Source: Mobula hypostoma (lineage: Eukaryota). Taken from it: a DNA stretch of 64,000 nucleotides. Of the stretch, positions 2,321 to 57,228 are shown piece after piece (positions within the stretch are counted from its first letter, which is position 1; every line of letters starts with the position of its first letter). The stretch covers positions 148,864,001 to 148,928,000 of the forward strand of contig NC_086097.1 in the NCBI RefSeq assembly GCF_963921235.1. The letters run 5' to 3'. A model generated the notes under the pieces. That model was not told the DNA's origin and did not search any database. It saw only the letters and a program-made list of their open reading frames with translations. The position numbers and the translations under genes are program-made.

Positions 2321-2381
2321 GAAGGGGAATAAATCCAAGCGGTTAAAAGCTGAGGAAGCTGAGGAGGATGAAATTCCTCAG
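2321..2381 (+). CDS. Topoisomerase I gene, putative charged N-terminal exon (xKGNKSKRLKAEEAEEDEIPQ)
   Basis: Strong pyrimidine tract ending tttttttAG at 2320 and CAG|GTATAT donor. 61 bp, phase 2 in and phase 0 out, so it joins in frame to 16356. K/E-rich like the TOP1 N-terminal domain. Confidence 0.65.
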
Positions 2382-15475: not shown

Positions 15476-16355
15476 TCTTTGTCAGTATTTGGAAGAGTTG
15501 CAGGATTAATAAATAGAATCCGACCAACTTAATATATCCAGCAATATGATTATCATTTTGAAATTATTACACAGGAAAGATGAAGTTAAGACACCTATTT
15601 TGCTTATATGAACAATGTACTGAGAGGGAAGGAACAGATATTACTTAGTGAGAAATTCCATGATATTTGCATAACTTGTGATCAAAAACTAATTCCTCCA
15701 GCATTAACTTTTTAAGACAGAGATGCTGCATATCCTGAGATCTTAACCAGGTGAAATTTTGGGCATGTCCAAGCAGTTGTCGTCCTTGAATCTTCTCAGT
15801 TAAAAAGTTCGTGTGCTACTGAGCATTCAACGTCCTGGTCATAGTATTTAAAAATATTGCTTGTTGAGTTGGAACAGATAAGAAGGTAACCTATTGTCAG
15901 CCTATGTTTAGTGATGAGGATTTAATGTTAAGTTTTATTTTGGAATTTACTCTTAAGCCTTTAATTCAGGGATTCACAACCTTTATACCTTGGATCCCTA
16001 CTATTAACAGAGGGATCTGTGAGCCTCAAGTTGGGAGCCCTTGTTTAAGTTAAAATATTACTGTGGTCCAGTTGTAAGGTATTGTTCACCAGAATATTAC
16101 TTCAAAATGAATATGAATAACTAGAAATGAAAACTATCTAAATTAATTGTCTGCTCAGTAGCATGAGAGGTTAGTGTGTTATCAAGCAGCTGGTTATCCC
16201 AACTGAATAGGATAAGTTTGGCACAATCTTTACTACTTTAGCAACCAAGAAATAGACACTATATAAAGAAAACATTAAAATAGACAGAATTAACTTTGTT
16301 TCCAAACAAATCTTGCTGCTCATTGTATTAATATCCTGTTTAAATTTCAAAACAG

Positions 16356-16516
16356 ATGTCATACAAGGCATATGGAAAAAGACCTGTAAAGCAAACGAAG
16401 AATGTGAAGAACAACATCATGTCGAAAGAGAAGAAGGAACTGAAGAAGGATGGAAAAAACAAGAAACAATTAAAAGAGAAGGAAGAGAAAAAGAAAGATA
16501 CAGAGAAGTGGAAATG
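16356..16516 (+). CDS. Topoisomerase I gene, Lys-rich N-terminal exon (MSYKAYGKRPVKQTKNVKNNIMSKEKKELKKDGKNKKQLKEKEEKKKDTEKWK-W)
   Basis: aacAG acceptor and TG|GTGAGA donor. 161 bp. Ends in KWK+TG, which with the G at 38759 gives the KWKWWEEE motif of nuclear TOP1. Confidence 0.85.
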
Positions 16517-16894
16517 GTGAGATTGAAGTTTAGGATTATCATTATACAACAGTACACAGGTACTGTGTGCTTAGCGTTTGGAATACATTCCTAGTAATAA
16601 GTGCAATAATGGAGACTGACAGTAATTATGTGCCAGCAGCTTAATATAAGCACCTGACCTCCCTGTTTCTGTGCATGAAATCCCTGCTGTCTTTGAGCAC
16701 TCCACAGCAATGAACTGCATGTGGCAAACTAATTTTTAAGGCTGCTGTTGGATATGCTGAGGAGCAGTGATGTTTTGGGGGCTGTCTTTTTGGCTGCATT
16801 ATTGACAAGCATCTGAATCCTACATTTTCTTTTGTCACCTCCTTTTGGAATTGATGTGCAGACAAGCAGTAATGATTCAAGATGTATTTAATAT

Positions 16895-19800
16895 ATGGTA
16901 CTCAAGGTGTTGTATCTAAATGTGCGTAGTATAAGAAATAAGGTGGATGATCTTGTTGCAATATTACAGATTGCCAGGTATGATGTTGTGGCCATCGCTA
17001 GATCGTGGCTGAAGGATGGTTGTAGTTGGGAGCTGAATATCCAAGGTTACACATTATATCGGAGGGATAGGAAGGTAGGCAGAGGGGATGGTGTGGCTCT
17101 ACTGGTAAAGAATGGCATCAAACCAGTAGAAAGATGTGACATAGGATCAGAAGATCTTGAATCTTTGCGGGTTGAGTTAAGAAATTGCAAAGGTAAAAGG
17201 TCTCTGGCAATTATATACAGGCCTCCCAACAGTGTCTGGGATGTGGACCACAGATTACAACAGGAAATAGAAAAGGCGAGTCAAAAGGGCATGTTATGGT
17301 AGTCATGGGACATTTTCACATGCAGGTCAATTGGGAAAATCAGGTTGGTAATGGATCTCGAGAGAGTGAGTTTGTTGAATGCCCAAGAGATAGCTTTTTA
17401 GAGCAGTTTGTCATTGAGCCTATTAGGGGATCAGCTATACTGGATTGGGTGTTATGTATGAACCAGAGATGATTAGGGAGCTTAAGGTAAAATAACCCTC
17501 AGGAACCAGTGATTAGAATATGATTGTGTTGTCCAACTTGAAATTAGATAGGGAGAAAGTAAAGTCTGATGCAGCAGTGTTTCAGTGGAGTAAGGGAAAT
17601 TACAGTGGTATGAGAAAGGAGTTGGCCAAAGGAAACTGGAAGGAGCTGCTGGCAGGGATGACAGTAGAGCAGCAATGGCGTGCATTTCTTTTTTTTTTTA
17701 ATTTTATTTTTATTTGGATAAGGAGTTCACAATTATCATGTACTTTTTTCACACATATAACCTTTTCCATTTTTTTATATGTATAAAACTACAATTATTT
17801 ATACATTCTTAAGTACACATTGAGATGATATAAAAGGAAAATAAACATTTAAATAGATAATTATGTACTTTGGTAAATCTAACCTATTAGGCTAAGTAAT
17901 GAAATTAGTTGTTAAGAAAAATGGTAATAATAGTTTCCATACAACCCTTCTGGACCATTTCCACTGGTCCAAAATGTTGCATACAAGCCTATATACCAAC
18001 CATTGTAGGTGTTTATATCCCAATTTGTTCGTGCTTGTTCCTGCCCGCAGACATAATTATCTAATCCCTATGTACTTACTTAGTTAATTTTTTCATTTTT
18101 TTTTTATCCCTTTCCCAAATCTTTCCCTTTACTTGTGTTAATTCTCTATTTTCCAAAAAAAAACAACAACAAACATTTAGACTAGGGGTGCTTACGTTAG
18201 CAATATTACTGTGTTGATGAGAAGAGCAATATAAATCATTAGGAGAGTCATCTAAAGTCTGCTCGCATTGGGGTTATATATTCAATCCATTTATTCCAGA
18301 TTTGATAAAATGTTTCTTTTTGAGTTCTCAGGGAGTAGGTCAACTTTTCCATTTTAAATATTTCCAAGATAATTTCGTACCGATCTTCTAATGTAGGTGG
18401 TATTGGATTTAGCCATTTTCTAGTGATTGATTTCTTACTTGCCGCTAAGAGGGCCTGCAGCAACTTTATATCTTCCTTCTGTTCAAGGAACAATACATGC
18501 CCCAAATAGAGCGTCTCAAAGTTCAGAGGTATCTGGGACCTAAGTACCTTAACTAATGTTCTATGAATACCTTCCCAAAATAGACTTAATTTAGGGCAAT
18601 CGCAGAAAATATGAAAATGATTTGCCTCCTTGGAGCCGCACCTTCTCCAACACATCACATTTGTATCTTTATATTTTTCCTGATATGGGGTCTTGAAGTA
18701 TCTTATAATGTTTTTCCAACAATGTTCTCTCCAAGTCAAAGAATTAGTCGAGGACCATTGAAAGCTGCAGATTTTCCCCCAAGCCTCCTCTGAAAGTACC
18801 AACCCCGCTTCTTTCTCCCACTTCTCTTTAATATACAGTGTATTTACATTTTTAGCATGGGAGAGTGCATTATATAGGCGAGAAACTGATTTACTAGGTA
18901 TTGAACTGCAAGCCGAATTCAGAATCTTGAAAACTTCTAATTCTACTGTTGATAGGTCTGTATATCTACAACTCTGGTTAACATAGTTCCGTATTTGAAG
19001 GTACCTAAAAAAGTCATTATGTTCTAGGCCATGTTTGTCCTGCAGGATTTGGAAACTTTGTAATACTCTTTTATCTATAAATGAGAGGTAGGTTGTAAGA
19101 CCTTTCTTTATCCATAGCTCAAATCTTTTATCTCCTCTGTTGGGAAGGAATTCGGTATCATATGCACACCATCTAAAGAGTTTTAACATGTTATTAATTC
19201 CACATGAATTAACCACCTTCTGCCATACTTTTAATGTAAGATTTATCCAAGCATTATTAAATTTTTCCAACTGTGCCATCAATCCTTTGTCAGCTATTGA
19301 GGCCTGAAGAGGAAAACTGTCAACTAATCCAAATTCTATTTCCTTCCATCTAGCCTTATATTCCCTATTACACCAATATAACAGAGGGGTTATCTGTGAG
19401 GCATAAAAATAATTTCTCAGGCAAGGAAGAACCATACCTCCTCTTTCCTTCCCTAACTGTAAAGTGTTATATCGAATTCTAGGTTTCCTTCCTTAATGGC
19501 GTGCATTTCTGAGAAAAATGAGGAAGGTGCAGGACATGTGTTCCAAAAATGAAGAAATACTAAAATGATAAAATAGTACAACTGTGGCTGACAAGGGAAG
19601 TCAAAGCTATTGTAAAAGCAAAAGAAAAGGCATACAACAAAGCAAAAATTAGTGGGAAGATGGAGGATTCAGAAGTTTTTAAAAACCTAGAGAGAGCAAC
19701 TAAAATAATCATTAGAAGGGAAAAGATGAAATATGAAAGCAAGCTAGATATCAATGTGGATAGTAGAAGTTTTTTCCAAGTGTGTTTAAAAATAAGAGAA

Positions 19801-21468
19801 ATGAGAGTGGATATAGGACCACTAGAAAATGAGGCAGGAAAAATAATAATGGGGGCAAGGAGAGGGCCAATGAACTAAATGAGTATTTTGTGTCAGTTTT
19901 CACTGTGGAAGACACTAGCAGTATGCCTGATACTGTAGTGTGAGAAGGAAGAGAAGTGGGTACTGTTACTGTTACAAGAGAGAAGGTGCTTAAAAAGCTG
20001 AAAGACCTAAAAGTACATAAGTTACCCAGACCAGAGGAGCTGCACTGTAGGGTTCTGAAAGAGATGACGTTAGAGATTGTGGTGGCATAAGAAATGTTCT
20101 TTCAGAAATCATTGGACTCTGGCAGAGGACTGGGAATTTGCAAATGTTACTCCACTCGAAGAAAGGAGGAAAGCAGCAGAAAGGGGATTGTAGACCAGTT
20201 AGCCTGACCTCAGTGGTTGAGAAAATGTTAGAGTTAATTGTTAAGAATGAGGTGATAGAGTACTTGGTGACACAGGACAAGATAGTACAAAGTCAGCATG
20301 GTTTCCTTCAGGGAACATCCTGCCTGATGAACCTGTTAGAATTCTTTGAGGAAATTACAAGTAGGATAGATAAAGGAGATGCAATGGATTTTGGACTTTC
20401 AGATGGCCTTTGACAAGGTGCCTCACGTGAAGCTGCTTACCAAGTTAACAACCTATGGTATTACAGGAAGGTTACTAACGTGGTTAGTGCATTGGCTGAT
20501 TGGTAGGAGGAAGTGAGTGGGAGTAAAAGGATCCTTTTCTGGTTGGCTGCCAATAACTAGTGGTGTTCCACAGGGGAATAGATGGCTTTGCTGCCAATCT
20601 TGCAGATGATACCAAGATTGGTGGAGGGGCAGGTAGTGTTGAGGAAACAGGTAGGATGCAGAAGGACTTAGACAGATTAGGAGAATGGGCAAGGAAGAGG
20701 CAAATGAAATATAATGTTGGAAAATGCGTAGTCACTTTGGTGCTAGAAATAAATATGCAGATTATTTTCTAAACGGGGAGAAATTCCAGGAACCTGAGAT
20801 GCAGAGGGACTTGGGAGTCCTTGTGCAGAACACCCTAAAGGTTAACTTGCAGGTTGAGTTGGTGGTAAGGAAGGCAAATGCCATGTTAGCATTCATTTCG
20901 AGAGGTCTAGAGTGCAAGAGCAAGGATGTGATGCTGAGGCTTTATAAGGCTCTGGTGAGGCCTCACCTTGAGTATTGTGAACAGTTTTGGACTCCTCATC
21001 TCAGAAAAGATGTACTGGCTTTGGAGAGGGTCCAGAGGAGGTTCACAAGGGTGATTGCAGGAGTGAAAGGGTTATCATACAAGTAACGTTTGATGACTTT
21101 CGGTCTGTACTCGCTAGAATTCAGAAGGATTGGGGGTGGGTGGGTACCTCATTGAAACCTTTTGCATGTTGAAAGGCCTTGACAAAATCGATGTGGATAG
21201 GATGTTTCCCATGGTGGAAAAGTCTAGAACAAGAGGGTGGAGAAATTTCTTCAGCCAAAAGTGGCGAATACATGGAATTAGTTGCACTTGCGGCTGTGGA
21301 GGCCAGGTCACTGGGTGTATTTAAGGCAGAGATTGATAGGTTCTTGATTGGACATGGCATCAAAGGTTACGGAAAGAAGGCTGGTAACTGGGGTTGAGGA
21401 GCCATGATTGAATGGCGGAGTAGACTCGATGGCCTAATCTGCTCCTATGTCATAGGACTTATGGTCTA
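16895..21468 (+). mobile_element. CR1 LINE ORF2, interrupted by an L1 3' fragment
   Basis: YLNVRSIRNK at the start; RT fragments at 20138-21400. Clearly similar to the 4565-8630 copy. Confidence 0.9.
17690..19494 (-). mobile_element. 5'-truncated young L1-clade LINE with 16-bp TSD
   Basis: Open 395-aa ORF2 C-terminus (CWRRCG..ANHFHIFCDC). Poly-T at 17690. TSD AATGGCGTGCATTTCT at 17674-17689 and 19495-19510. Confidence 0.95.
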
Positions 21469-22399
21469 ATATCAAAGAATGTATAAATTGTATACCCTTG
21501 AAATTCACTTTTCATGGGTAGCCACAAAGCAAGAAACCTGAAAGAACCCAACTAAAGAAAAAATTAATAAAGTAAAAATAAAAGACCAACATTCAATGCG
21601 CAAGAGAAAGGAAAAAAAATTAAAATTGTGCAAAGAATTGAAGCAAATAACAGCATTCCAAACCAAAATTGAGTCCTCAGATCTGAACCCCAGAGCAGCC
21701 TGGAGTAGGCCTAAAGCCTCGTCTATCAGTTCATCATGTTAGCAGGCATGGAGCACAACAGCCAGGGCAGTCTTCATAGCCTCAGTGCCATGAAGATGAC
21801 CATCATGAAGAATGAGTCAAATCCTAACCACCACCCTGTCTTTTCCGTCTATCTGAGATGGCATTTAAATTAATCTAACAATGGAATGATATGGCAGTTT
21901 CCAACTTGTAATCAGAAGATAAGGAGAGATTTTAAGATTTGGGTGACCTGTCAATGTGTGAATTGGGTACTACCATTTCCAGAAATGGCTTATATTCCCA
22001 TGGGGACAATGACATAGCCCCAATGACATCGCTCTTCACGCCATGCCCAATGTCAGCCTTTGCAGGCAGCATCTCCATGAGTGATTCCATTATTGTAAAA
22101 GTGCCAGCAAAGGACAGGGGATCTCACTAGTTTCTCCACATACAATTGCAACACATACAAATGTTTCTTAAATTGCAAGAGCGCAAGTATTTGTGAATGA
22201 TTGAAGTAGAGGATCAATACCATCATAATAAATTGTCATTCTGGGTCCCATTGTAGCATTTTAATTTGCACAAAGGCTGCCTATTTTTAATAGGCATGAT
22301 GGCACCAGTAAACCAGGGTGATGTTCTGAGCCCACTTACAATGCTTCTAAATATACCTCTTTTGAATTACTTTCACTGCAATGTGCATTACACATTGAA

Positions 22400-25300
22400 A
22401 CATAGAAAACCTACAGCACAATACAGGCCCTTCAGCCCTCAATGCTGTGCTGAACATGTATTAACTTCAGAAATTACCTAGAGTTACCCAGAGCTCTCTA
22501 TTTTACTAAGGTCCATGTACCTATCCAGGAGGCTCTTAAAAGACCCTATTGTATCTGCCTCCACAACAGTTGCCGGCAGCCCATTCCACGCACTCACTGC
22601 TCTTTGCATGGGGGGAGAAAACTTACCCCTGACATCCCCTCTGTACCTGCTTTCAATCACCTTAAAACTGTGCCCTCTTGTGTTAGCCATTTCGGCCCTG
22701 GGGAAAAAGCCTCTGACTATCCACACAATCAATGCCTCTCATCATCTTGTACACCTCTATCAGGTCACCTCTCATCCTCTGTTGCTCCAAGGAGAAAAAG
22801 CCAAGTTCACTCAGCCTGTTCTCATAAGGCATGCTCCCCAATCCAGGCAACATCCTTGTAAATCTCCTGTGCACCCTTTCGAAAGTTTCCACATCCTTCC
22901 TGTAGTGAGGTGACCAAAACTGAGCACAGTACTCCAAGCAGGGTCTGACCAGGGTCCTATATAGTTGCAAAATTACCTCTCCTCTTTTGAACTCAATCCC
23001 ACGGTTGATGAAGGCTAATGCACCGTATGCCTTTATAACCTTTTAGTAGATCTGCACAGCAGCTTTGAGTGTCCTAATGACATGGACCCTAAGATCCCTC
23101 TGATCCTTCACACTGCCAAGAGTCTTACCATTGATACCATATTCTGCCATGATATGTGACCTACCAAAATGAACTACCTCACACTTATCTGGGTTGAACT
23201 CCATCTGTCACTTCTCAGCCCAGTTTGCATCCAATCAATGTCCTATTGTAACCTCTGACAGCCCTCCACACTATCCACAACACCCCCAACTTCTGTGTCA
23301 TCTGCAGATTTAGTAACCCATCCCTCAACTTCCTTATCCAGATCATTTATAAAAATCATGAAGAGAAGAGGGTCCCAGAATAGATCCTTGAGGCACACCA
23401 CTGGTCACCAACCTCCTTGCAGAATATGACCTTTCTACAACCACGCTTTGCCTTCTGTGGGCAAGCCAATTCCAGATCCACAAAGCAACGTCCCCTTGGA
23501 TCCCATGTCTCCTTACTTTCTCACTAAGCCTTGCATCAGGTACCTTATCAAATGCCTTGCTGAAATCCTTATACGCTTCATCTACTGCTCTACCTTCATC
23601 AATGTGTTTAGTCACAGCCTCAAAAAATTCAATCTGGCTCATAAGGCGCGACCTGCCTTTGACAAAGCCATGCTGACTATTCCTAATCATATTATACCTC
23701 TCAGGATCTTCTCCACCATCTTACCAACCACTGAAGTAAGACTCACTGGTCTATAATTTCCTGGGCTATCTCTACTCCCTGTTTTGAATAAAGGAACAAT
23801 ATCTGCAACCCTCCAATCCTCCGGAACCTCTCCCGTCCCCATTGATAATGCAAAGATCATCACCAGAGGCTCAGCAATCTCCTCCCTCGCCTCCCACAGT
23901 AGCCTGCGGTATATCACGTCTGGTCCCGGCGATTTATCCAACTTGATGCTTTCCAATTTCAGCCCTTTCTGTAGTGAATACTGAAGCAAAGTATTCATTA
24001 AATACCTCCGCCATCTCCTCTGGTTCCACTACACATTTTTCCACTCTTCACATACTTGTAGAATGCCTTGGGGTTTTCCTTAATTCTGTCCGCCAAGGCC
24101 TTCTCATGGCCCCTCTGGCTCTCCAAATTTCATTCTTAAGCTCCTTCCTGCTAGCCTTATAATTTTCTAGATCTCTATCATTACTTAGCTTACGAAAGTT
24201 TCAAAAAACTTTTATTTTCTTCTTGACTAAATTTTCAACAGCCTTTGTACACCATGGTTCCTGTACCCTACCATCCTTTCCCTGTCTTGTTGGAATTTAC
24301 CTCTGCAGACCACCACGCAAACATTCCCTGTACATTTACCACATTTCTGCTGTACATTTCCCTGAGAACATCTGTTCCCACTTTATCCTTCCAAGTTCCT
24401 GCCTGATAGCTTCTTATTTCCCATTACTCCAATTGAACGCTTTCCTAACTTGTCTGTTCCTATCCCTCCAATGCTATGGTAAAGGAGATGGTGATCACAA
24501 TTCAATCTCCAAAATGCTGTCCCACTGAGAGACCTGACACTTGACCAGGTTCATTTCCAAATACCAAATCAAGTACAGCCTTTCCTCTTGTAGGCTTATC
24601 TACATAGTGTGTCAGTAAACCTCCACCCCATCTGAACCCCTTGCTCTAGGGAGATGCCAATTAATATTTGGGAAATTAAAATCTCCCACCACAACAACCC
24701 TGTCATTATTATTCCTTTCCAGAATCTGTCTCCCTATCTGCTCCTCGATGTCCCTGTTACTATTGGGTGGTCGATACTTAAAAATAAACACCCAGTAGAA
24801 TTATTGACCCCTTCCTATTCCACCCACAGAGACTCAGTAGACAATCCCTCCATGACTTCCTCCTTTTCTGCAGCAGTGACACTATCTCTGATCAGCATTG
24901 CCTTGCCCCTAACTCTTTTGCCTCCCTCCCTGTCCTTCCTGAGACATCTAAAGCCTGGCACTCGAAGTAGCCATTCCTGCCCCTGAGCCATCCAAGTCTC
25001 TCTAATGGCCACAACATCATAGCTCCAAGTACCGATCCACGCTCTTAAGCTCATCTGCTTTGTTCATGATACTGCTTGCATTAAAATAGATACATCTCAA
25101 ACCACTGGTCTGAACACGTCCCTTCTCTATCACCTGCCTATCCTCCCTCTCGCTTTCTCCAAGCTTTCTCAATTTGTGAGCCAACTGCCCCTTTCCCTGT
25201 CTCTTCAGTATGGTTCCCACCCCCTCAGCAATTCTAGTTTAAACTCTTCCCCAATAGCCTTGGCAAACCTCCCTGCCAGGATATTGGTCCCCCTCGGATT

Positions 25301-26420
25301 AAAGTTCAACCCGTCCTTTTTGTACAGGTCGCACCTGCCCCAAAAGAGGTCCCAATGATCCAAAAATCTGAATCCCTGCCCCCTGCTCCAATCCCTCAGC
25401 CACACATTTGTCTTCCAGCTCACTCTATTCCTATACTTTCGCATGGCACAGGCAGTAATCCCGAGATTACTACCTTTGAGGTCCTGCTTCTGAATTTCCT
25501 TCCTAACTCCCTGTAGTCTGTTTTCAGGACCCCCTCCCTTTTCCTGCCTATGTCATTGGTACCAATATGTACCACGACCTCTGGCTGTTCTCCTTTCCAC
25601 TTCAAGATATCATGGACGCGATCAGAAACAGCCAGACCCTGGCACCTGGGAGGCAAGCTACCATCAGTGTTTCTTTCCTGCGTCCACAGAATCGCCTGTC
25701 TGAACCCCTAACTATAGAGTCCCCTATCACTGCTGCCATCCTCTTTTATTTCCCTACCCTTCTGAGCCACAGGGTCGGACTCTGTGCCAGAGACGTGGCC
25801 ACTGTGGTTCCCCCAGGTAGGTCGTTTCCACCACCACCTCCCCCAACAGTACTCAAACAGGAGTACTTATTGTTAAGTGGGTCAGCCACAGGGGTACTCT
25901 CTAGTATCTTCCCTCTCTTGACAGTTACCCACTTATTTCTCTCCTGAGGCCCCGATGTGACCACTTGCCTGTAGTTCCTCTCTATCACTACCTCACTTTC
26001 CCTGACTAGTCGAAGGTCATCGAGCTGCATCTCCGGTTCCCTAACAGGGTCCCTAAGGAGCTGCAGCTTGACACACCTGGTGTAGATGTGGCCATCCAGG
26101 AGGCTGGGAGTCTCCCAGACATCCCACATATGACACCTGGTATAGAACACCGGCTTCACAGACATGCTTCCTATTCCTTTTCTTCACAAGTAACTTGCCT
26201 CGCATCGACCCGTTATCATCGAAGCCACATTAAGCCAAAGCCCTCCTACTCTGACTCCCTCTACTCCAACGCTCGTTCTATAATGTTGTCATCTTTTTAT
26301 ATTCTTCCCACCAGTCTAACTCACTGACATCCACTCGCCTGAGCAGTTGTGCCTCAATCAAACCGCTGAAGAAAAAATGATCTCCTTTTAAATTCTTCCC
26401 ACCAGTGTAACTCGCTGACT
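22400..26420 (-). mobile_element. Near full-length degenerate CR1 LINE with small internal deletions
   Basis: ORF1 N-terminus (25746..26165), esterase HIGTNDI, and APE and RT fragments. Confidence 0.9.
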
Positions 26421-27136
26421 TGTAAACTACAGATTTCATAATTTTCTATCGAATCCAATGGACTTGACACTCAAGCAAACAAGTACACAACTTTTAAGTG
26501 GACGAAGGTTCATCGCCACGGTCAGAAGCAAGGCAGGAGGGGGTCTGCAAGCCAGGAAACAGGAATGAGACCCCCTCTACCCAACACCTTGTTAGCAAAT
26601 GAGCATTTGTTGGAGAAGAAAGCTGAGGACTTGAGGGCAAGATTGCTTTATTCCAGGGAATGATGGATTGTTGTGTTCTATGTTTAATGGAAACGTGGCT
26701 TATTCCCAGCATGCCAGATATAGTGATCAGACCTGAAGGCTTCTTGATTCGCAGGCTGGACCGAACTGCTGATTCGGAGAAGGTAAAAGGTGGAGGTGTG
26801 TGTTTCAAGATAAATTCTCGGTGGTGCTTCAATGCGACAATTTTGTCAAAATCATGTTCTCCTGACCTTGAACACCTAATGATCAGATGCAGTCAGTTTT
26901 GTTTACCAAGGGAATTCACATCAGTGATCCCCACTGGTGTTTGCGTACCGTGAGCAGTCAACTGTAATCAAGCGCTTAAGGTACTGCATGATGCAGTCTC
27001 CAAACAAGAAACTGTCCATCCCGACGCATTTCAAATCAGTTGAGGTCTTCAACCAGGCTTATTTGAAGAAATACCTGCCCAGTTACCATCAATGTATAAT
27101 CTGTAATACCAGAGATCACACCACACTAGACCACTG

Positions 27137-27818
27137 CAAAAGGATCTAGTATATGATTAAACTCTTCTCTGGCTTCAAGCAGTGTATCAATTATAATCCT
27201 GGTGATCCTTCCAGAAACCATGGAAACATAGGGACAACAGGCATCTTTAAAGAATACCAGATTAATACCATCCACAAATCTGTAAGGAAGCTCAAGTAAC
27301 AGCTTATGTGAGACAATGATGACCTTGGACTTGGGTCAGCTGGAGTTTACAGGATTCCCTGTGAATGTGGAGCAGCGTATATCAGTCTGATAGGATGCAC
27401 AGTGGAAATACGCATCAAGGAGCACGAGGCGTATCTATTTGGGTTACCTGGAGAAATCAGTGGTAGCAGAACACTGCACTCGCAATGGCCATAGAACTGA
27501 CTTCAATGGTACAAAACTACTGTGCTGTGCCAATCACTTTTGGGACCACCTGGTAAATGAAGCCATTGAAATAAAACTAGAGGAAAAGAAGTTTAACAAA
27601 GACAAAAGTCTCGCTCTAATTAAGAACTGAACCAGGGTGGGAGAGCAGAAAATTGGGTGAGGACTAACCAACTTGGGGACTGAATACAGGGGTGTACATG
27701 TACGCCAGACTAGACATGCCCAGGCATCATCCCTGAAGAAGATAGCAGAGTTTGTCATCGTAACGTCGTTTATAATCGATACCTGTACATGACTTGAAAC
27801 CAGAGAAGAGTATATTTG
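27137..27818 (+). mobile_element. Penelope-like element fragment (GIY-YIG endonuclease) with inverted terminal piece
   Basis: GVYRIPCECGAAYI...RIKEH and KSVVAEHC...EAIEIK. Ends are mutually inverted (aaactcttctctggcttcaag / cttgaaaccagagaagagta). Near-perfect 14-bp TSD ACACTAGAC(C/T)ACTG. Confidence 0.8.
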
Positions 27819-28393
27819 ACACTAGACTACTGTTAAACTAAGATGAGGAATATCTACTGTTCCATGCCAGAACACATTTCAATAAATCTGATCACTTCTT
27901 GACAACCCTTCTCCTACCTACAAACAGGCAGAGGCTAAAGAGCAAAGCTCCAGAGATTAGGGCAACAAAGAAGTTGAGAGGAGTGGCTAAGGGATTGCTT
28001 TGAGTCAATGAACTTGTCCGTTCTCAAGGACTTATCTACAGATCTGAATGAATACACCAGAGCTGCTACGGATTTTAAAAACAGTTGTAGACAAGTGTTT
28101 CCCCACAAAATCATTCAGAGTCTACCCCAATCAAAGCCCTGGATGAGCTATGAAATCTGTACTCTGCTGAGGGCCAGATCAGAGGCTGGTGACCAAGAAA
28201 GTTACAGAGGTCCAGGGTATAATTTCTGGAAAGCCGATACATGGTTGAAATGGCAATTCTGGACTAAACTTGAATCAAGGAAAGATGCTCAATAATTGTG
28301 GCAGGGCTTGAATGCTACCACCTCGTATTAAGTAAAGTAAGTGACACAGGCAACAGCTGGGCTTCACTTGCAAATCAGCTTAATGCCTTCTGT

Positions 28394-30174
28394 CAACACA
28401 CATCAAAGTTGCTGGTGAATGCAGCAGGCCAGGCAGCATCTCTAGGAAGAGGTACAGTCGATGTTTCAGGCTGAGACCCTTCGTAGGGACTAACTGAAGG
28501 AAGAGTTAGTAAGAGATTTGAGAGGGGGAGGGGGAGATCCAAAATGATAGGAGAAGACAGGAGGGGGAGGGATGGAGCCAAGAGCTGGACAGGTGATTGG
28601 CAAAGGGGATATGAGAGGATCATGGGACAGGAGGCCCAGGGAGAAAGACAAGGGGGGGGGGGGACCACAGAGGATGAGCAAGGGGCATAGTCAGAGGGAG
28701 AGAAAGGAGAGTGAGAGAAAGAATGTGTGTATAAAAATAAATAACAGATGGGGTACAAGGGGGAGGTGGGGCATTAGCGGAAGTTAGAGAAGTCGATGTT
28801 CATGCCATCAGGTTGGAGGCTACCCAGACGGAATATAAGGTGTTGTTCCTCCAACCTGAGTATGGCTTCATCTTTACAGTAGAGGAGGCCGTGGATAGAC
28901 ATGTCAGAATGGGAATGGGATGTGGAATTAAAATGTGTGGCCACTGGGAGATCCTGCTTTCTCTGGCGGACAGAGCGTAGGTGTTCAGCAAAGCGGTCTC
29001 CCAGTCTGCGTCAGGTCTCGCCAATATATAGAAGGCCACATCGGGAGCACCGGACGCAGTATATCACCCCAGTCGACTCACAGGTGAAGTGTCGCCTCAC
29101 CTGGAAGGACTGTTTGGGGCCCTGAATGGTGGCAAGGGAGGAAGTGTAAGGGCATGTGTAGCACTTGTTCTGCTTACAAGGATAAGTGCCGGGAGGGATG
29201 GGGGGGATGAATAGACAAGGAAGTCGCGTAGGGAGCGATCCCTGCGGAAAGCGGGGCGGGGGGCGGGGAGGGAAAGATGTGCTCAGTGGTGGGATCCCGT
29301 TGGAGGTGGCGGAAGTTACGGAGAATAATATGTTGGACCCGGAGGCTGGTTGGGTGGTACGTGAGGACCGGGGAACCCTATTCCTACTGGGGTGGTGGGA
29401 GGATGGAGTGAGAGCAGATGTACGTGAAATGGGGGAGATGCATTTGAGAGCAGAGTTGATAGCGGAGGAAGGGAAGCCCCTTTCTTTAAAAAAGGAGGAC
29501 ATCTCCCTCGTCCTGGAATGAAAAGCCTCATCCTGAGAGCAGATGCGGCAGAGACGGAGGAATTGCAAGAAGGGGATGGCATTTTTGCAAGAGACCAGGT
29601 GAGAAGAGGAATAGTCCAGATAGCTGTGAGAGTCAGTAGGCTTATAGTAGACATCAGTGGATAAGCTGTCTCCAGAGACAGAGACAGAAAGATCTAGAAA
29701 GGGGAGGGAGGTGTCGGAAATGGACCAGGTAAACTTGAGGGCAGGGTGAAAGTTGGAAGCAAAGTTAATAAAGTCAACGAGCTCAGCATGCATGCAGGAA
29801 GCAGCGCCAATGCAGTCGTCGATGTAGCGAAGGAAAAGTGGGGGACAGATACCAGAATAGGCACAGAACATAGATTGTTCCACAAAGCCAACAAAAAGGC
29901 AGGCATAGCTAGGACCCATACGGGTGCCCATAGCTACACCTTTAGTTTGGAGGAAGTGGGAGGAGCCGAAGGAGAAATTATTAAGAGTAAGGACTAATTC
30001 TGCTAGACGGAGCAGAGTGGTGGTAGAGGGGAACTGATTAGGTCTGGAATCCAAAAAGAAGCGGAGAGCTTTGAGACCTTCCTGATGGGGGATGGAAGTA
30101 TAAAGGGACTGGACATCCATGGTGAAAATAAAGTGGTGGGGGCCAACTTAAAATCATCGAAAAGTTTAAGAGCG
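28394..30174 (-). mobile_element. 5'-truncated Penelope-like element (RT + Cys motif + GIY-YIG) with 10-bp TSD
   Basis: DVQSLYTSIP, GVAMGTRMGPSYA, RYIDD, GVIYCVRCSRCGLLYIGET. TSD TGCCTTCTGT at 28384-28393 and 30175-30184. Confidence 0.92.
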
Positions 30175-32327
30175 TGCCTTCTGTGCTCCTTTTGACAGTC
30201 AAAACATGGAGAAACCATCACGAACTCCCACAGCCCCCAGTGATCCTGTGATTTCAGTCTGAGGCTGACATGCTAGCAGCCTTCAGTGGGGTAAACACAC
30301 AAGAAGCAAATGGACTGAAGGAGTATCTGGCCAAGTACAAAAGATGTATGCTGATCAACTTGCTGGAGTTTTCACTGAGCTCCTTAACCTCTTGCTTTGG
30401 CATTCTGATGTACTCACCTGCTTCAAGCAGGCTTCACTTTTTCCGTAATCAGCTCAATGACCATCGTCCAATAGCACTTGCATCCACTGTGATTAAATGT
30501 TTTGAGAGGTTGGTGATTAAAACAGATCAACTCCTGCCTGAGAAGATAATTGGATTCACTTCAGTTTGCCTACTGGCACAACAGGTCCACAGCAGATGCC
30601 ATCTCATTGACTCAGCTCTGGAACATCTGGACAGCAAAGATGCATGGACCTCTTTATCGACTGCAGCTCAGCATTCAATACCATCATCCCCTCAAAACTA
30701 ATCAGTAAGCTGGAAAACCCTGGCCTCGTTACCTCCCTGTACAATTAGATCTTTGATTTACTCATTTGCAGATCCCAGTAGGTTTGGATTAGCAACAACA
30801 TCTCCACAATCTCCATCAGCACAGGTGCCCCACAAGGCTGTCTGCTTAGCCCTGCTGTACTTGCTTTATACTTGTGACTGTGTGGTAATGCCATATTCAA
30901 GTTTGTTGATGACAAAAACTGAATCAAAGGTCGTGATGGCTCAGCACATAGGAGAGAGATTGAAAATCTGGCTGAGTGGTACCACAACAAAAACCTCTAC
31001 TCAATGCCAGCAAGACCAAGGAGCTGATCATTGATTTCAGGAGGAGAAGACCAGAGATCTATGAGCCAGTCCTCATCAGAGGTGGAGACAGTCAGCAGCT
31101 TTAAATGCCTTTTGTTATTTTGGAGGACTTGTACTGGACTTGAGTAAGTGGCATTATGAAGAAAGCAAGGCAGCACCTCTTCTTCCTTAGAAGTTTGCAA
31201 AGATTTGATAAACTTCTATAGATGTGTGCTGGAAGGGTTCATTGACTGGTTGTATCATGGCCTGATATGGAAACACCAATGCCCTTGAACAGCAAATCTT
31301 TTTATATATATAAAAAAAATAGTGGATGAGGTCCAGTCCATCACAGGTAAAGCCCTCCCCACCACAGAGCACATCTTTGCAGAGCATTTTCACAGGAAAG
31401 CAGCATCCATTGTTCAGGACCCCCACCACCCAGGTCCTGCTGTCTTCTTGCTGCCATCAAGAAGCAGATACAGGAGTCTCAGGACTTGCACAAGCAGGTT
31501 CAGGAACTGTTGTTAACCTTCATCCATTGGACTCTTGAACCAGAGGGGATAATGTCACTTAACTTCACTTACTCCATCACTGAAATGTTACAACAACCTG
31601 TTGGCTCACTTTTAAGGACTCTTCCGCTCGTTCTCAAAATTGATTGCTTGTTTATTTATTAATATTTCTTTCCTATTGGCACCGTTTGTTGTCTTTTGTA
31701 CACTGGTTGGATGCTCAGGTTGCTGTGGTCTTTCATTGATTCTATTACGGTTATTCTATTATGGATTTATGGTTATGGTTTTTGGAATTATTGAGTAAGC
31801 CTGCAAGAAAATGAGTGTGTTATATATGGTGACATATATTTGCTTTGAACTTTGATATCGCTTGTGAAACTTCAAAGCTGTGCCTCATATTTAATGGCAA
31901 TGGAAGTAGAAATGTATCCCACAGAAAAATAAATTTAGGTAATTGGCATAGAATCTTGAACTTGCATCTTCATGTTTCTGAAGTAAAGGTGCTATGATTG
32001 AGGCTAGTATTAACTGCCACTTCAGGCTTTATTGCATCAGTAATTTTGGAAATTCTGTAGAAATAAGAATATACAAGATTTGAAATTCACACTTTAATGG
32101 CAGCATCTAAAAAATGTATGATGTTTTGCAAAGAAATATTCTAAAATGATTCAAAATATTGAAGCTACCAACAATAACTGAAGCTGTTCCTTCTTACCTT
32201 TCATACTCCTTGTCTGCTCATATAACAAATCTTAATAGGAACTGAAGGTGAGGGTAGTTTTTGTCTGCAGGGTCAGTTATCGTGTACACATTTTTTGTGT
32301 GGTGTGGGGAACTAAATTAGTAGAGCC

Positions 32328-32337
32328 ACAGGAAGTG
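32328..32337 (+). promoter_or_regulatory. ETS/GABP-like site about 100 bp upstream of the presequence exon
   Basis: ACAGGAAGTG motif match only. Confidence 0.25.
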
Positions 32338-32434
32338 TTTCTTAGTTGAAAGTTCAAAACAGAATGACAAGTATTTTATCAATAGTATTTCGAAGGGAGC
32401 CTAGGCATAGGGCTATCAACCCTAAGCCAGTGTT

Positions 32435-32565
32435 ATGCTCAGAGCTGTGATCTCTATGACAAAAGTTGCTTTTATTAACTTCAACATTAGGCATGCTTGC
32501 TTATCTTGGAGCACTGTAAGAAGCACAATTACTCTTGTTCGGAGTTTACATTTTGCATTGAAGAG
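32435..32565 (+). CDS. TOP1MT: Putative alternative first coding exon with mitochondrial targeting presequence (MLRAVISMTKVAFINFNIRHACLSWSTVRSTITLVRSLHFALK-R)
   Basis: ATG at 32435 with an in-frame TAA at 32423. 43 codons with no D/E, rich in R/K/S/T/L. Perfect AG|GTAAGT donor in phase 2, giving R-WEEE on joining 38759. Lies in unique, non-repeat sequence. Confidence 0.75.
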
Positions 32566-33097
32566 GTAAGTTGCAGCTTTCAGTTCTGCAGCAAGTGGGA
32601 ATTGCTTAGTAACAGATTGTTTTCAAAAACCAAGCTGTCTATCAATATTTATTAGTTCAGTCATTTCTAATTTATTTTATGCTGGTGAATGTAAAGGGAA
32701 ACTGTGCAGTTAATAACAGGACCTCTGACAGTGGTGATGTGTAGTAGGATTGTAGAGTTGAAGTTTGCAGTTCCCTGAAAGCGACTGCACGGTTTGATAG
32801 GGTAGTAAAGAGTATAGCATTCTAGCTGTGTGGGGGCTTTGGAGAGGGTGCAGAAGAGGTTTTTTAGGATGCTGCCTGGATTATTTACCCTTTCTTCCTC
32901 TCTTTCTCCCCCCCCCCCCACTATTTTTCCATTTCTCATTGTGATTACCCTCTCACCCTATCCATCACCTCCCTCTTGGCCTGAAACATCAACTTTTTAT
33001 TCCTTTCCTAGGATACTGTCCAACCTGTTGAGTGTATGTACCTCCCTCTGTTTCTCCTTCCCTTCTTTCCATGGTTCACCGCCTGTAAAGAAATTAT

Positions 33098-33724
33098 ACT
33101 GCCCATGAAAAGTATTCCCCCCCCCCCCGGAAGTGTTCATGCTTTAATGTTCTACAGCACTGAATCAGTGGATTTAATTTTTTTTTTATATACTGATCAA
33201 CAGAAAAAGACCCTTTTTGTTTCAAAGTGAAGACAGATCTCTACAAAGTGAGCTAAATTAATAACAAATACAAAACACAATAATTGCATAAGTATTCACC
33301 TCGCGCCCCCCCGCCCCAGTATGACACACCAAATCACTGGTGCAGCAGTTGGTTTTAGAAGTCATATAATTAGTTAAATTGAGATGGTTTTTAAAGACCT
33401 TTGTACAGTCCAGGTGTTTCACTGATTGCAGTAAAGCTGATTGAGACCTATCCATATAGACTCAAGACTGTAATTGCTGCCAAAGGTGCATCTACTAAAT
33501 ACTGACTTGAAGGGGTGAATGTTTTTGCAGTTTGTATTTATATTAATTTTATATTTGTAATTAATTCAGATCATTTTGTAGAGATCTGTTTTCACTTTGA
33601 CATGAAGGAGTCTTATTCTGTTGATCAGTGTCAAAAAAAGCCAAATTAAATCCACTGTAATTCAATGTTGTAAAACAATAAAGCATAAAAACTTCCAGAG
33701 GGGGAGGTGAATACTTTTTATAGG
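33098..33724. mobile_element. Non-autonomous Tc1-like DNA transposon with about 200-bp inverted repeats
   Basis: AAAAGTATTC-Cn...GTGGATTTAATT...CAGATCTCTACAAA on the left mirrors TTTGTAGAGATCTG...AATTAAATCCAC...GAATACTTTT on the right. No ORF. Confidence 0.75.
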
Positions 33725-34566
33725 TTGGGTAAATTTTTTCTTTAGCCCTTTACCTCTTCCACCTATACCCTCCCAGTTTCTCACTTCATCCCCTCCCCCA
33801 GTCATGCACCTCCCACTCATCTGGTCTCACCTATCATCTGCTGCCAGCATTTACCTTCTCCCCCCAACCCCCACACCTTATTCTGGCTTCTGCCCCCTTT
33901 CCTTTTGAGACCTGATGAAGGATCTCAGCCTGAAACATAGACTGTTTATTCCCTGCATGCTTCCTGACTTCAGTTCAACCAGCAGTTTGTGCCTGTTGCT
34001 CAAGATTTTCAGCATCTGGAGGATCTTGTGTGTATAGCATGCATGGCTTTATTAATTGAGGCAATGAGTTAAGAGTCAGGAAGTTGTGTGTTGCAGGTTT
34101 ATAAAACTGATCTACCTGCATCAAAGGGATTGCATTCAATTGTGATTGCCTCATAATAGGGGAAGAATGTGGTGGCTTTGGACAGGGTGCAGAAGAGGTT
34201 TTCCAGAATGTTGCTTAGTGGGCATGTGCTTAAAAGGAGAAGTTAGGCAAACGTGTTGGTTTTTCTGGAATGGCAGAAGCTGAGGGGAGTCTGGATGGAA
34301 GTATATAAAATTGAGAGACCTAGATAGACAGCCAGTATAATTTTTCCTGGGTTAAAATACTTACACACAGGAACACTGCTCAGCCCAAAATGAATGGGGG
34401 AAAGTTCAAAAGACAACTGTTAGCATAGAGTAATGGATTCCTGGATGTGCTATCAAGGGTTATGGTGGAGTCAGACATGATGGGGGCATTTAAGAGGATC
34501 CTAGGTATATAAATGTGCATCAAAAGGAGGGATGTGGTCCACATGCAGAAGGATTTAAAAAGAGAT

Positions 34567-37400
34567 CGTGGGAGATTTTAATTTTCCACACATTGACTGG
34601 GAAGCCGATACTGTAAAAGGGCTGGATGGTTTGGAGATTGTAAAATGTGTGCAGGATAGTTTTTTGCAGCAATACATAGAGGTACCAACTAGAGAAGGGG
34701 CAGTGTTGGATCTCCTGTTAGGGAATGAGATAGGTCAAGTGACGGAGGTTTGTGTTGGGGAGCACTTAGGGTCCAGTGATCACAATGCTATTAGTTTCAA
34801 TATAATTATGGAGAAGGATAGGTCTAGACCCAGGGTTGAGATTTTTGATTGGAGAAAGGCTAACTTTGAGGAAATGCAAAAGGATTTAGAAGGAGTGGAT
34901 TGGGACAATTTGTTTTATGGGAAGAATGTAATAGAGAAATGGAGGTCATTTAAAGGTGAAATTTTGAGGGTACAGAATGTTCCTGTTAGGTTGAAAGGAA
35001 AGGTTAAAAGTTTGAGAGAGCCATGGTTTTCAAGGGATATTGGAAACTTGGCTCAGAAAAAGAGAGATATCTACAATAAGTATAGGCAGCATGGAGTAAA
35101 TGAGGTGTTCGAGGAATATAAAGAATGTAGAAAGAATCTTAAGAAAGAAATTAGAAGAGCTAAAAGAAGGTATAAGGTTGCTTTGGCAAGTAAGCTGAAA
35201 ATAAATCCCATGGGTTTCTACAGTTATATTAATAGCAAAAGGATAGTGAGGAATAAAATTGGTCCCTTAGAGAATCAGAGTGGAGAGTTATGTGTGGAGC
35301 CAAAAGAGATGGGGGAGATTCTGAACAATTTCTTTTCTTCGCTATTCACGAAGGAGAAGGACATTGAATTGTGTAAGGTAAAGGAAACAAGAAGGGTAGT
35401 TATGGAAAGTATGACAATTAAAGAAGAGGAAGTACTGGCGCTTTTAAGGAATATAAAAGTGGATAAGTCTCCGGGTCCTGACAGGATATTCCCTAGGACC
35501 TTGAGGGAAGTTAGTGTGGAAATAGCAGGGGCTCTGACAGAAATATTTCAAATACTTTATACTTTATTGTCGCCAAACAATCGATACTAGAATATACAAT
35601 CATCACAGCGATATTTGATTCTGCACTTCCCACTCCCTGGATTACAAATATTAAATATTAAAAATAGTAAAAAAAAATAGTAAATATTAAACACTTAAAT
35701 TATAAATCATAAATAAAAAATAGAAAAATGGAAAGTAAGGTAGTGCAAAAAACTGAGAGGCAGGTCCAGGTATTTGGAGGGTCAGGATCCATTCAGCAGT
35801 CTTATCACAGTTGGAAAGAAGCTGTTCCCAAATATGGCCGTACGAGTCTTCAAGCTCCTGAGTTTTCTCCCGGAGGGAAGAGGGACGAAAAGTGTATTGG
35901 CTGGGTGGGTCGTGTCCTTGATTATCCTGGTAGCACTGCTCCAACAGCGTGCGGTATAGATGTCATTAGAAACAGGGATGGTGCCGGAGGATTGGTGTAT
36001 TTACTCATGTTGTTCCATTGTTTACAAAGGGTTCTGAGAGTAAACCTAGCAATTATCGGCCTCTGAGTTTGATGTCAGTGGTGGGTAAATTAATGGAAAG
36101 TATTCTTAGAGATGGTATATATAATTATCTGGATAGACAGGGTCTGATTAGGAACAGTCAACATGGGTTTGTGCGTGGAAGGTCATGTTTGAATTTTTTG
36201 AAGAGGTTACTGGGAAAGTTGAGGGTAAAGCGGTGGATGTTGTCTATGTGGACTTCAGTAAGGCCTTTGACAAGATTCCACATGGCAGGTTAGTTAAGAA
36301 GGTTCAATCGTTAGGTATTAATATTGAAGTAGTAAAATGGATTCAGCAGTGGCTGGATAGGAGACACCAGAGAGTATGGTGGATAACTGTTTGTCAGGTT
36401 GGAGGCCGGCGACAAGTGGTGTGCCTCAGGAATCTGTACTGGGTCCAAAGTTGTTTGTCATATACATTAATGATCTGGATAATCAGATGAATAAGTATGC
36501 AGATGATACTAAGATAGGTGGAGTTGTGGTTAATGAAGTAGGTTTTCAAAGCTTGCAGAGAGATATAGGCCAGTTGGAAGAGTGGGCTGAAAGATGGCAG
36601 ATGGAGTTTAATGCTGATAAATGTGAGGTGCTACATTTTAGTAGGACTAATCAAAATAGGACATACATGGTAAATGGTAGGGCATTGAAGAATGCAGTAG
36701 AACAGAGGGATCTAGGAATAATGGTGCATAGTTCCCTGAAGGTGGAATCTCATGTGGATAGGGTGGTGAAGAAAGCTTTTGGTATGCTGGCCTTTATTAA
36801 TCAGAGCATTGAGTATAGGAGTTGGGATGTAATGTTGAAATTGTACAAGACATTGGTGAGGCCAAATTTGGAGTATTGTGTACAGTTTTGGTCACCGAAT
36901 TATAGGAAAGATGTCAACAAAATAGAGTACAGAGAAGATTTACTAGAATGTTACCTGGGTTTCATCATCTAAGTTACAGAGAAAAGTTGAACAAGTTGGG
37001 TCTTTATTCTTTGAAACGTAGGAGGTTGAGGGGGTCTTGATAGAGGTATTTAAAATTATGAGGGGATAGATAGAGTTGACGTGAATAGGCTTTTTCCACT
37101 GAGGGGGGGAGATTCAAACAAGAGGACATGAGTTGAGAGTTAAAGGGCAAAAGTTTAGGGGTAACATGAGGAGGAACTTCTTTACTCAGAGAGTGGTAGC
37201 TGTGTGGAACGAGCTTCCAGCAGAAGTGGTTGAGGCAGGTTCGATGTTGTCAAGTAAAATTGGACAGCTATATGGATAGGAAAGGATTGGAGGGTTATGA
37301 GCTGAGTACAGGTCGGTGGGACTAGGTGAGAATAAGAGTTCGGCATGGACTAGAAGGGCCGAAATGGCCTGTTTCTGTGCTATAATTGTTAATCTGGTTA
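34567..37400 (+). mobile_element. 5'-truncated CR1 LINE interrupted by a Rex1-like fragment
   Basis: 340-aa ORF from GDFNFPHIDW to KSPGPD, resuming at about 35958 with NYRPLSL, DFSKAFD and KYADDTK. Confidence 0.92.
35551..35958 (-). mobile_element. Rex1/Babar-like 3' fragment inserted in CR1
   Basis: Minus strand encodes the ...NSFFPTVIRLLN terminus and an (ATAAAGT)n-type tail. Confidence 0.65.
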
Positions 37401-38758
37401 TATAGATTTAGGTTAATTAGGCAGCATTAGTTTAATTAGTTTGGCATAACATTGGGCTGAGCAGCTGTTCTTGTGCTATATTATTCTATGTTTTACTCCT
37501 GAAACTTTTTGTTTTCAGTCCTGAGATATATCAATTTATTGGTGAATGAATGTCATGTGAGACAAATAATTATGGGATGGAATTGTATTCACTACTAGAA
37601 TTGCAGCAGGTGTAGTCAGCTGAGAAATTACAGAAAATTAATTTAATGGACAAGCCTGAAGACTGCTTCAGAGAACCTACTTGACCAAGTGGTGCAAGGT
37701 TTTAAATAAAGTTGATACAAGCACCAAGCATTTTAAAGGCTTACTTTTGCATGAATTTCCCAAGGACAGCATAGATTACACAAATGACATTTATGAAAGT
37801 GCTGTCCAAACAAATGTTCTTTTCTTTATATCACTATGTATGTACAGGCTTCTGTCCATTGGTGTTTCAAATGCACCAAGGAGTTTGGCAATTATGTGGA
37901 TCATGCAAGTTGCAATAAGTCCCTACTTTTTTCCCCCAGTTTTCCCCAAAATCAAGGCACTATGCAATCCAATTTCTAAGTGTTATTTTTATCTTCCTCA
38001 GTGGTAGTAGAATGTGTATTTCATTTAACTCTGAATGTATCCAGTGAGCATAGCATTTGAACATATTTATAGACAGTATTTTAGCTTAGGGAACAGTTTT
38101 CACATTCAAACTAGCTAATAATCAAATGATGTATCTGAACTGCAAGTTTTTTTTTAAATGACAGTCTAACTATTCTAGGATCAAGGACTGACTTCTGAAA
38201 CATTAAAGACGCATTCCGATATAATCACAGGGGCAAACACTTGTCCAGAGATTATCTCCTTTACTGGTTAGTGCAGCAGCAGAACTGCACTGTCTCAATA
38301 AACAGGATAAATGGACAATAAAAAGGCTAAGGGCTGTAATCTCCAGCAAGTACAGTATTTCACAATTGAGAGGAGGGGTGGGAGGAAGAGTGTTTTCATG
38401 GGTTCAAGTGGTATAAATCTTGCCTCATAAATTTAATATAGTACATTTTGAAATTCTCCAAAGGCTGGGGACAGGAGTTGTATCATGGTCCAGCATTTGA
38501 AAAGGATAAAGTAAGTAATGTACCTGGATCCTTCACATCGTAACTTTTTAAACAAAAGGAGATTGTTCCTTGTGATCTTTCCAGATAAGTATTAGTGAAA
38601 GTTGTGAGTGCCCTCAGTAATGTATGGAAAATGATTTGGGTGTATTGAGAAATACTGATTGGTTGATAGTCTTTTCCTTCACTTAAACATTTGTTATTGG
38701 GGGGTAAAATAGTCTAACCTAACCTGCTCCCTGTGGAATTTGTACATTCTGTCATCAG

Positions 38759-38874
38759 GTGGGAAGAGGAAATCTATGGAGATGGTGTAAAATGGATGTT
38801 TCTGGAACATAAAGGTCCGTTATTTGCACCTGAATATGAGAACCTTCCCTCGGGCATCAATTTCTATTATGATG
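38759..38874 (+). CDS. TOP1MT: Topoisomerase IB core exon (WEEEIYGDGVKWMFLEHKGPLFAPEYENLPSGINFYYDG)
   Basis: cAG acceptor and G|GTGAGT donor. 116 bp. Conserved KW.FLEHKGP.FAP.YE.LP motif. Confidence 0.95.
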
Positions 38875-42107: not shown

Positions 42108-42229
42108 GCAATCAAATGAAGTTGACTCCTGCAGCAGAAGAAATGGCCACCTTCTTTGCGAAGATGCTGGATCACGAGTACACCACAAAGGCAATTTTCA
42201 GACAAAACTTTTTTGAGGACTGGCGGCAG
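42108..42229 (+). CDS. TOP1MT: Topoisomerase IB core exon (NQMKLTPAAEEMATFFAKMLDHEYTTKAIFRQNFFEDWRQ)
   Basis: aaaAG acceptor and CAG|GTGTGT donor. 122 bp. Conserved AEE.ATFFAKMLDHEYTTK motif; in frame with both neighbours. Confidence 0.95.
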
Positions 42230-42663: not shown

Positions 42664-42786
42664 GAAATGAGTAGCTCAGAGAGGATGATAATCAGAGACC
42701 TAAATAAATGCGATTTCACAGAACTTCATCGATACTTTACTGAAAAAGCAGAGGCCAGAAAAGGATTGCCCAAAGAGGAAAAACAG
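42664..42786 (+). CDS. TOP1MT: Topoisomerase IB core exon (EMSSSERMIIRDLNKCDFTELHRYFTEKAEARKGLPKEEKQ)
   Basis: tacAG acceptor and CAG|GTACAA donor. 123 bp. Contained in ORF 42643..42837. Confidence 0.95.
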
Positions 42787-51241: not shown

Positions 51242-51429
51242 AAATTAAAGATGGAGCAAGATGCAATCATTGAGGAGTACGGCTATTGTATAATGGATGG
51301 GCATCGGGAAAGAATCGCAAACTTCAAAATTGAGCCACCAGGGCTTTTTCGTGGCCGTGGTGATCATCCGAAGATGGGAAAACTGAAGAGAAGGATCATG
51401 CCTGAAGATGTCATCATCAATTGTAGTAG
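51242..51429 (+). CDS. TOP1MT: Topoisomerase IB core exon ([62 protein letters not shown])
   Basis: ttgcAG acceptor and AG|GTAAAT donor. 188 bp. Hallmark [17 protein letters not shown] motif. Confidence 0.97.
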
Positions 51430-57083: not shown

Positions 57084-57228
57084 TGATTCAAAGATCCCAA
57101 CACCTCCACAAGGTCATCGTTGGAAGGAAGTGCGTTTCGATAATAGAGTAACTTGGCTGGCGTCATGGGTGGAAAATGTCCAGAATCTTAATAAATATAT
57201 CATGCTCAACCCAAGTTCCAAGCTTAAG
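57084..57228 (+). CDS. TOP1MT: Topoisomerase IB core exon ([48 protein letters not shown])
   Basis: cccAG acceptor and AAG|GTATGT donor. 145 bp. Conserved GH.WKEVR.DN.VTWL and KYIMLNPSS motifs. The gene continues beyond the window. Confidence 0.97.

Follow-up and report, generated by a model that had tools for sequence, protein, structure and literature searches.

An ATG-initiated frame of 43 codons lies within a long intron of a topoisomerase gene in the window (the whole 64,000-nucleotide stretch of Mobula hypostoma DNA that was analyzed). The question raised by this locus is whether the frame, here called exon M, is a functional first exon that supplies a mitochondrial presequence, as an earlier note on this DNA had proposed, and what the exons around it encode.

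The gene was identified through its catalytic core, an exon of which matches topoisomerase IB structures. The best database match, P0001 (RefSeq XP_062913773.1), is a 604-aa protein of Mobula hypostoma that aligns exactly with 14 exons, namely exon M, the peptide of which forms its first 44 residues, and 13 core exons; it keeps all five catalytic residues (R327, K371, R429, H471, and Y562; human positions for comparison in PMC10081982, Table 3). Five of the core exons lie in the window:

38759..38874, + strand, core exon 1, shared and the target of both 5′ ends (contigs, P0001 map)
42108..42229, + strand, core exon 2 (contigs, P0001 map)
42664..42786, + strand, core exon 3 (contigs, P0001 map)
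51242..51429, + strand, core exon 4 (topoisomerase IB match, P0001 map)
57084..57228, + strand, core exon 5 (P0001 map)

The remaining eight were located beyond the window, at window-relative 64335-84901. The core exon has two loci in the genome: the window gene lies on C1 and its paralogue on C2. A tree was built from 33 core sequences picked from 300 proteins, with no mammalian TOP1MT row among them; TOP1MT models of birds, turtles, and gar formed a cluster that included the window gene (95/91), and proteins like the C2 paralogue clustered with TOP1 (100/99); two rows of lamprey long models fell outside both the TOP1MT and TOP1 clades (83/64), and for this reason the lamprey long models are not counted here as TOP1MT. 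The assignment of the window gene as a TOP1MT orthologue is supported by these core comparisons. Upstream of it on C1, a Maf_N match at 0.74 Mb and BRO1 matches at about 1.1 Mb, identified by domain only, are in line with the neighborhood of human 8q24.3, where we take MAFA and RHPN1 to be the neighbors of TOP1MT; a Maf gene also lies about 0.94 Mb from the C2 paralogue, with no BRO1 match there. A Chiloscyllium protein from this locus (P0162, XP_043543828.1) is given as _MT in the supplement of PMC10081982.

The short isoform was found to carry the following features at its 5′ end:

32329..32337, + strand, ETS-type motif just 5′ of the longest contig; one of four matches in the window
32341..32434, + strand, transcribed 5′ leader of the short isoform (from contig 5′ ends; not a mapped start site)
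32364..32450, + strand, upstream ORF of 28 codons, out of frame and overlapping the main ATG
32435..32565, + strand, coding part of exon M, an alternative first exon and predicted mitochondrial presequence; 44/44 residues as in P0001
32566..38758, + strand, short-isoform intron, 6,193 bp, GT-AG; joint in 4/4 runs

Exon M runs from the ATG at 32435 through 43 whole codons plus 2 nt (131 nt, phase 2) to a GAG/GTAAGT donor after 32565, and the acceptor CAG/G at 38758/38759 finishes Arg44 and continues with WEE. Its 43 residues include 4 R and 2 K, 9 S/T, and no D/E; over all 44 the net charge is +7 with 9 S/T and no D/E, a basic, acid-poor, and S/T-rich composition. The frame was therefore correctly described in the earlier note (a 43-codon ATG frame, no acids, six R/K, and a GTAAGT donor in the required phase), and the acceptor at 38759 fits. 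Contigs overlapping the stretch were available from eight runs of two studies, all presumed to be RNA and none recorded as such; seven runs were compared with the window (X7 was left out), and the short joint was scored in four. The 32565>38759 joint was seen in contigs of all four runs, representing both studies, as were the next two core joints, so that the spliced transcripts anticipated by the same note were recovered. The contig 5′ ends (32341, 32353, 32361, and 32389) begin within the locus, which fits exon M as the first exon without mapping a start site. The motif at 32329..32337, found with a pattern that we presume to be ETS-type, is a candidate element of a putative internal promoter of the non-CpG-island kind; no CpG island was detected at exon M (CpG o/e 0.08-0.25) or near the first mapped exons of the long form described below. 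As P0001 begins with this peptide, exon M is already known to RefSeq (XP_062913773.1) and the novelty of the exon alone is low; it had been called hidden, which holds as regards ORF finders only. Separately, 38311-38358, in the unique island just before the shared acceptor, matches the start of Hypanus isoform X1 (P0122) at 15 of 16 N-terminal residues, and runs X1 and X5 show low contig depth over 37756-38537; this region is possibly a minor third 5′ end or a retained intron.

A second, longer 5′ end was found to reach the same core. Within the window it comprises:

2321..2381, + strand, second-last unique exon of the long isoform, 61 nt (long models; loose contig end)
16356..16516, + strand, last unique exon of the long isoform, 161 nt, K/E-rich, ending KWKW, phase 2
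16517..38758, + strand, long-isoform intron enclosing exon M, 22,242 bp

When long models of other species are aligned to the locus, 10 exons are recovered, the first about 28.9 kb upstream of the window and the last ending at 16516. All have AG/GT ends, and together they form one open frame without a stop that encodes at least 317 residues, 44% of them charged, with 224/326 identity to the Pristis long N-terminus; the RefSeq model P0301 adds further exons about 36 kb upstream of the window. Decay of the long exons in rays was considered and ruled out, with 10/10 mapped exons open and bearing AG/GT ends. The K(K/R)X(K/R) pattern occurs five times in the long N-terminus, which also contains an RKRK run; these NLS-like matches are of low specificity in this K-rich region. 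In run X2, a 997-nt contig covers 16356-16516, preceded by the letters of 2321-2381 and followed by those of 38762-38787, giving the joints 2381>16356 and 16516>38759; its core side consists of 26 loose letters (29 with the 3 that fit both sides). These flanks show exon M bypassed in the long form, whose upstream exons are joined directly to the core; support for the long junction amounts to this one contig in one of four runs. Runs X3, X4, and X8 have no cover of 16150-16640, which is not evidence of absence, and in X2 contigs support both the short and the long junctions. Two 5′ ends are thus attached to a single catalytic core of 13 exons, and because exon M is a first exon that lies inside an intron of the long form, a transcript can carry only one of the two N-termini.

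Taken together, we consider it highly probable that 32435-32565 is a spliced alternative first exon of TOP1MT, likely encoding the mitochondrial presequence of a 604-residue topoisomerase IB, and that a longer isoform, likely nuclear, skips it. The short transcript would start at an internal promoter near 32.3 kb, with its first exon splicing to 38759 as seen in the contigs; the basic, acid-free peptide would direct import through TOM/TIM, with MPP then removing it, and the core left after clipping would relax mtDNA supercoils, as human TOP1MT does. A second promoter, predicted 36 kb or more before the window starts, would drive at least 10 other exons that splice 16516>38759 in the one contig, giving the same core the charged domain of at least 317 residues with its NLS-like motifs and probably a nuclear location. 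Exclusive mitochondrial localization is doubtful for the window gene, since the long isoform is without the exon M peptide. Nuclear entry of the long form is the weakest step, and a TOP1-like nuclear job for it is open to question, because binding to mitotic chromosomes is poor when human TOP1MT is forced into nuclei (PMC2770673). This weak binding would also suit an alternative that we judge unlikely, in which exon M is real and the long isoform either persists as a minor relic or serves outside the nucleus (cytosolic or germ-line storage). The same alternative is favored by the depths in X2 (5.8 for the long contig vs 30.3 for exon M, contig depth being a poor measure) and by blastp, in which neither TOP1 nor the long N-termini of gar, turtle, quail, and lamprey were matched significantly by the ray long N-terminus (best E 1.5). 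However, frames and splice sites are intact across the 10 exons, and identity of the long N-terminus (Hemitrygon 295/342 and Heptranchias 188/340) is as high as or above that of exon M, for which identity to the window falls from 34/44 in stingrays to 8/44 in chimaera; this level of identity suggests selection on the long N-terminus. Within the long N-terminus, conservation is highest in the exon at L005 5684-5792, at 70-88% relative to other sharks and rays; its SSCQESFED motif is a candidate interaction motif.

The current annotation divides this gene. RefSeq presents the upstream exons in Mobula as a stand-alone gene, P0301 (XP_062904148.1, 384 aa, 'DNA ligase 1-like'), and holds stand-alone upstream models for the stingrays Hemitrygon (P0302) and Hypanus (P0303). 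Such models would be expected from gene fission in this ray group, with an upstream gene that ends at the donor and a TOP1MT that is purely mitochondrial as in mammals, and several observations agree with it: (i) P0301 and P0302 end at the donor with KWKW, past which read-through meets an immediate TGA; (ii) no long model of Mobula, Hemitrygon, or Hypanus is present among the clusters compared; and (iii) 16356-16516 is uncovered in three of the four runs, which is not proof of absence. Fission is nonetheless very unlikely in our estimate, as the sole contig over 16356-16516 splices to 38759 without reading into the intron, the first AATAAA/ATTAAA lies 1.3 kb beyond the donor, and the exon is in phase 2, the phase of the acceptor. 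The separate naming of the upstream exons in Mobula and the two stingrays looks like an annotation error; XP_062904148.1 is a mis-split front end of TOP1MT, and XP_072924754.1 and XP_059843678.1 are likely mis-split front ends too.

The peptide of exon M was also compared among cartilaginous fishes. A basic, nearly acid-free first peptide of 43-44 residues with the same joint was found in 16 of the 22 species met in database models (clusters of four other species lay outside the comparison, and two species had partial pieces only). The conservation looked for by the earlier note is thus present and, with contig splicing and the RefSeq models in these 16 species, its claim of a functional first coding exon is borne out. 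In 14 chondrichthyan N-termini, of which three from skates were shortened by 11 residues so as to begin at the matching Met, net charge ranged from +5 to +10, nine had no acid and five had one, and R3 was present throughout; the only invariant columns among 12 aligned exon M sequences were M1, R3, and A41. Presequences typically hold their composition while their sequence drifts. The hydrophobic moment of exon M was not above that of shuffles (best 11-residue value 0.66 at residue 34, p 0.38, 1000 shuffles; residues 1-18 gave 0.28 in the amphipathicity test), nor was it in any of the 14 chondrichthyans (p 0.23-0.71). Candidate MPP sites with Arg at -2/-3 occur at R29 and R36, neither of which is invariant, and the cleavage that had been expected near RSLH is unsupported, the motif not being conserved and its Arg being missing in Narcine and Rhinoraja. 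The lack of an amphipathicity signal and of an invariant cleavage motif would be explained if exon M, while transcribed and conserved as a first exon, encoded a peptide other than a presequence. We find this highly improbable, because the position and junction are those of the MTS-bearing N-terminal exon described for human TOP1MT (PMC10081982) and because the basic, acid-poor composition is retained in 14/14 species despite low identity. As predicted from composition, position, and orthology, exon M is very likely the TOP1MT presequence exon. In two models, P0014 (catshark) and P0149 (whale shark), part of an exon-M-like peptide is spliced after long exons, which reflects either cassette use or modeling error.

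About 70% of the host intron, 16517-38758, has matches elsewhere in the 264 kb compared, and exon M sits in a unique island of 1,070 bp (31759-32828), one of nine islands of at least 300 bp in this intron, as had been claimed of its repeat-free setting. Four ATG frames of at least 30 codons in the host intron reach a phase-2 GTRAG donor, one of them acid-free with at least four R/K, and the background rate of acid-free, basic, donor-linked frames is 0.13 per 22 kb (3 in 526,000 bases); on such frame counts exon M is only suggestive from sequence alone, and it is splicing and orthologues that settle the question. That exon M is a chance intronic ORF, comparable frames being expected at this background rate, is next to impossible and already refuted by its splicing in 4/4 runs and conservation in 16 species. 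The introns also contain two very similar retrotransposon 3′ ends, presumably L1/Tx1-like, at 18248-19492 and at 45864-49507 (-) and 50026-51045 (-), the second copy being almost complete, with pieces that resemble ORF1 and ORF2. Many broken reverse-transcriptase pieces (4.6-15, 19.5-25.9, 34.5-37, and 59-62 kb) and GIY-YIG pieces (29011-30147 and 61404-62320) are present as well, which we take to be CR1/L2-like and Penelope-like, respectively, and a 92-bp tandem repeat of two copies, 96% matched, lies in a CpG-rich patch at 55442-55627.

Both kinds of model were found in other vertebrates, in each case as database predictions. Joined long models exist alongside exon M in nine of the 16 species, and long TOP1MT-type models occur in sharks, gar (911 aa), turtles, and birds (846-1013 aa); the turtle Carettochelys has models of both 610 and 1237 aa, and other birds have short basic models. 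A large oocyte form of amphibian topoisomerase I has been reported; it was not found in our literature search, and could be the long TOP1MT isoform. The same search returned no paper describing a long TOP1MT isoform, with the key 2001-2007 papers and Pommier 2022, which may mention non-mammalian 5′ exons, outside its coverage. In PMC10081982, TOP1MT is exclusively mitochondrial with a short N-terminus and no long isoform is mentioned; its sequence list uses an 814-aa long Chiloscyllium model as TOP1MT. The same picture is given in PMC2790464 and bioRxiv 10.1101/2025.03.27.645657, and PMC8455175 describes TOP1MT as exclusively mitochondrial and the human enzyme as relaxing mtDNA; vertebrate TOP1 and TOP1MT are treated as organelle-restricted in PMC2770673. 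The long form is not described for the human gene, and the nested two-ended gene is visible in databases and was not found in print.

As a counterpart of human TOP1MT exon 1, exon M is expected; the surrounding gene matters more, as an intact, spliced, nuclear-type long form in ray TOP1MT contrasts with the organelle-restricted picture of PMC10081982 and PMC2770673. The locus contributes a run in which contigs support both junctions, together with a gene split that can be corrected. We lean toward the view that in most jawed vertebrates TOP1MT has at no time been confined to mitochondria: once duplicated, it would have kept a nuclear-type long isoform and gained a nested presequence exon with its own promoter, and sharks, rays, gar, turtles, and birds would have a second topoisomerase I in the nucleus, perhaps restricted to certain tissues or to oocytes. 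The suggested origin of the mitochondrial enzyme is then a presequence exon arising in an intron, with the old 5′ exons later lost in mammals, and the prediction is a second nuclear topoisomerase I outside mammals.

Compared with known systems, the ray short isoform (604 aa; 14 exons, as a short basic first exon plus 13 core exons) resembles human TOP1MT (601 aa, 14 exons, MTS 1-40; PMC10081982) in exon count, which was compared without the human boundaries, and the ray gene shares with mammalian TOP1MT the five catalytic residues and the clade. Unlike the mammalian gene, it keeps at least 10 upstream exons on the same core and has its exon 1 nested in an intron. The long isoform is like vertebrate nuclear TOP1 (21 exons, with an NLS in its charged N-terminus) in that a charged N-terminus ends with KWKW at the same junction; however, TOP1 is a different paralogue (the C2 locus), and its N-terminus is of about 210 residues vs at least 317 in the ray long isoform, with no significant sequence match between them. 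In vertebrates, UNG1 and UNG2 are produced through alternative first exons from one gene serving nucleus and mitochondria. Yeast TOP1 is likewise a single gene for both compartments (PMC2770673). Ray TOP1MT is similar to these systems in placing alternative N-termini on one catalytic core and differs from them in that the ray also has a dedicated nuclear paralogue and the dual localization of its TOP1MT is predicted.
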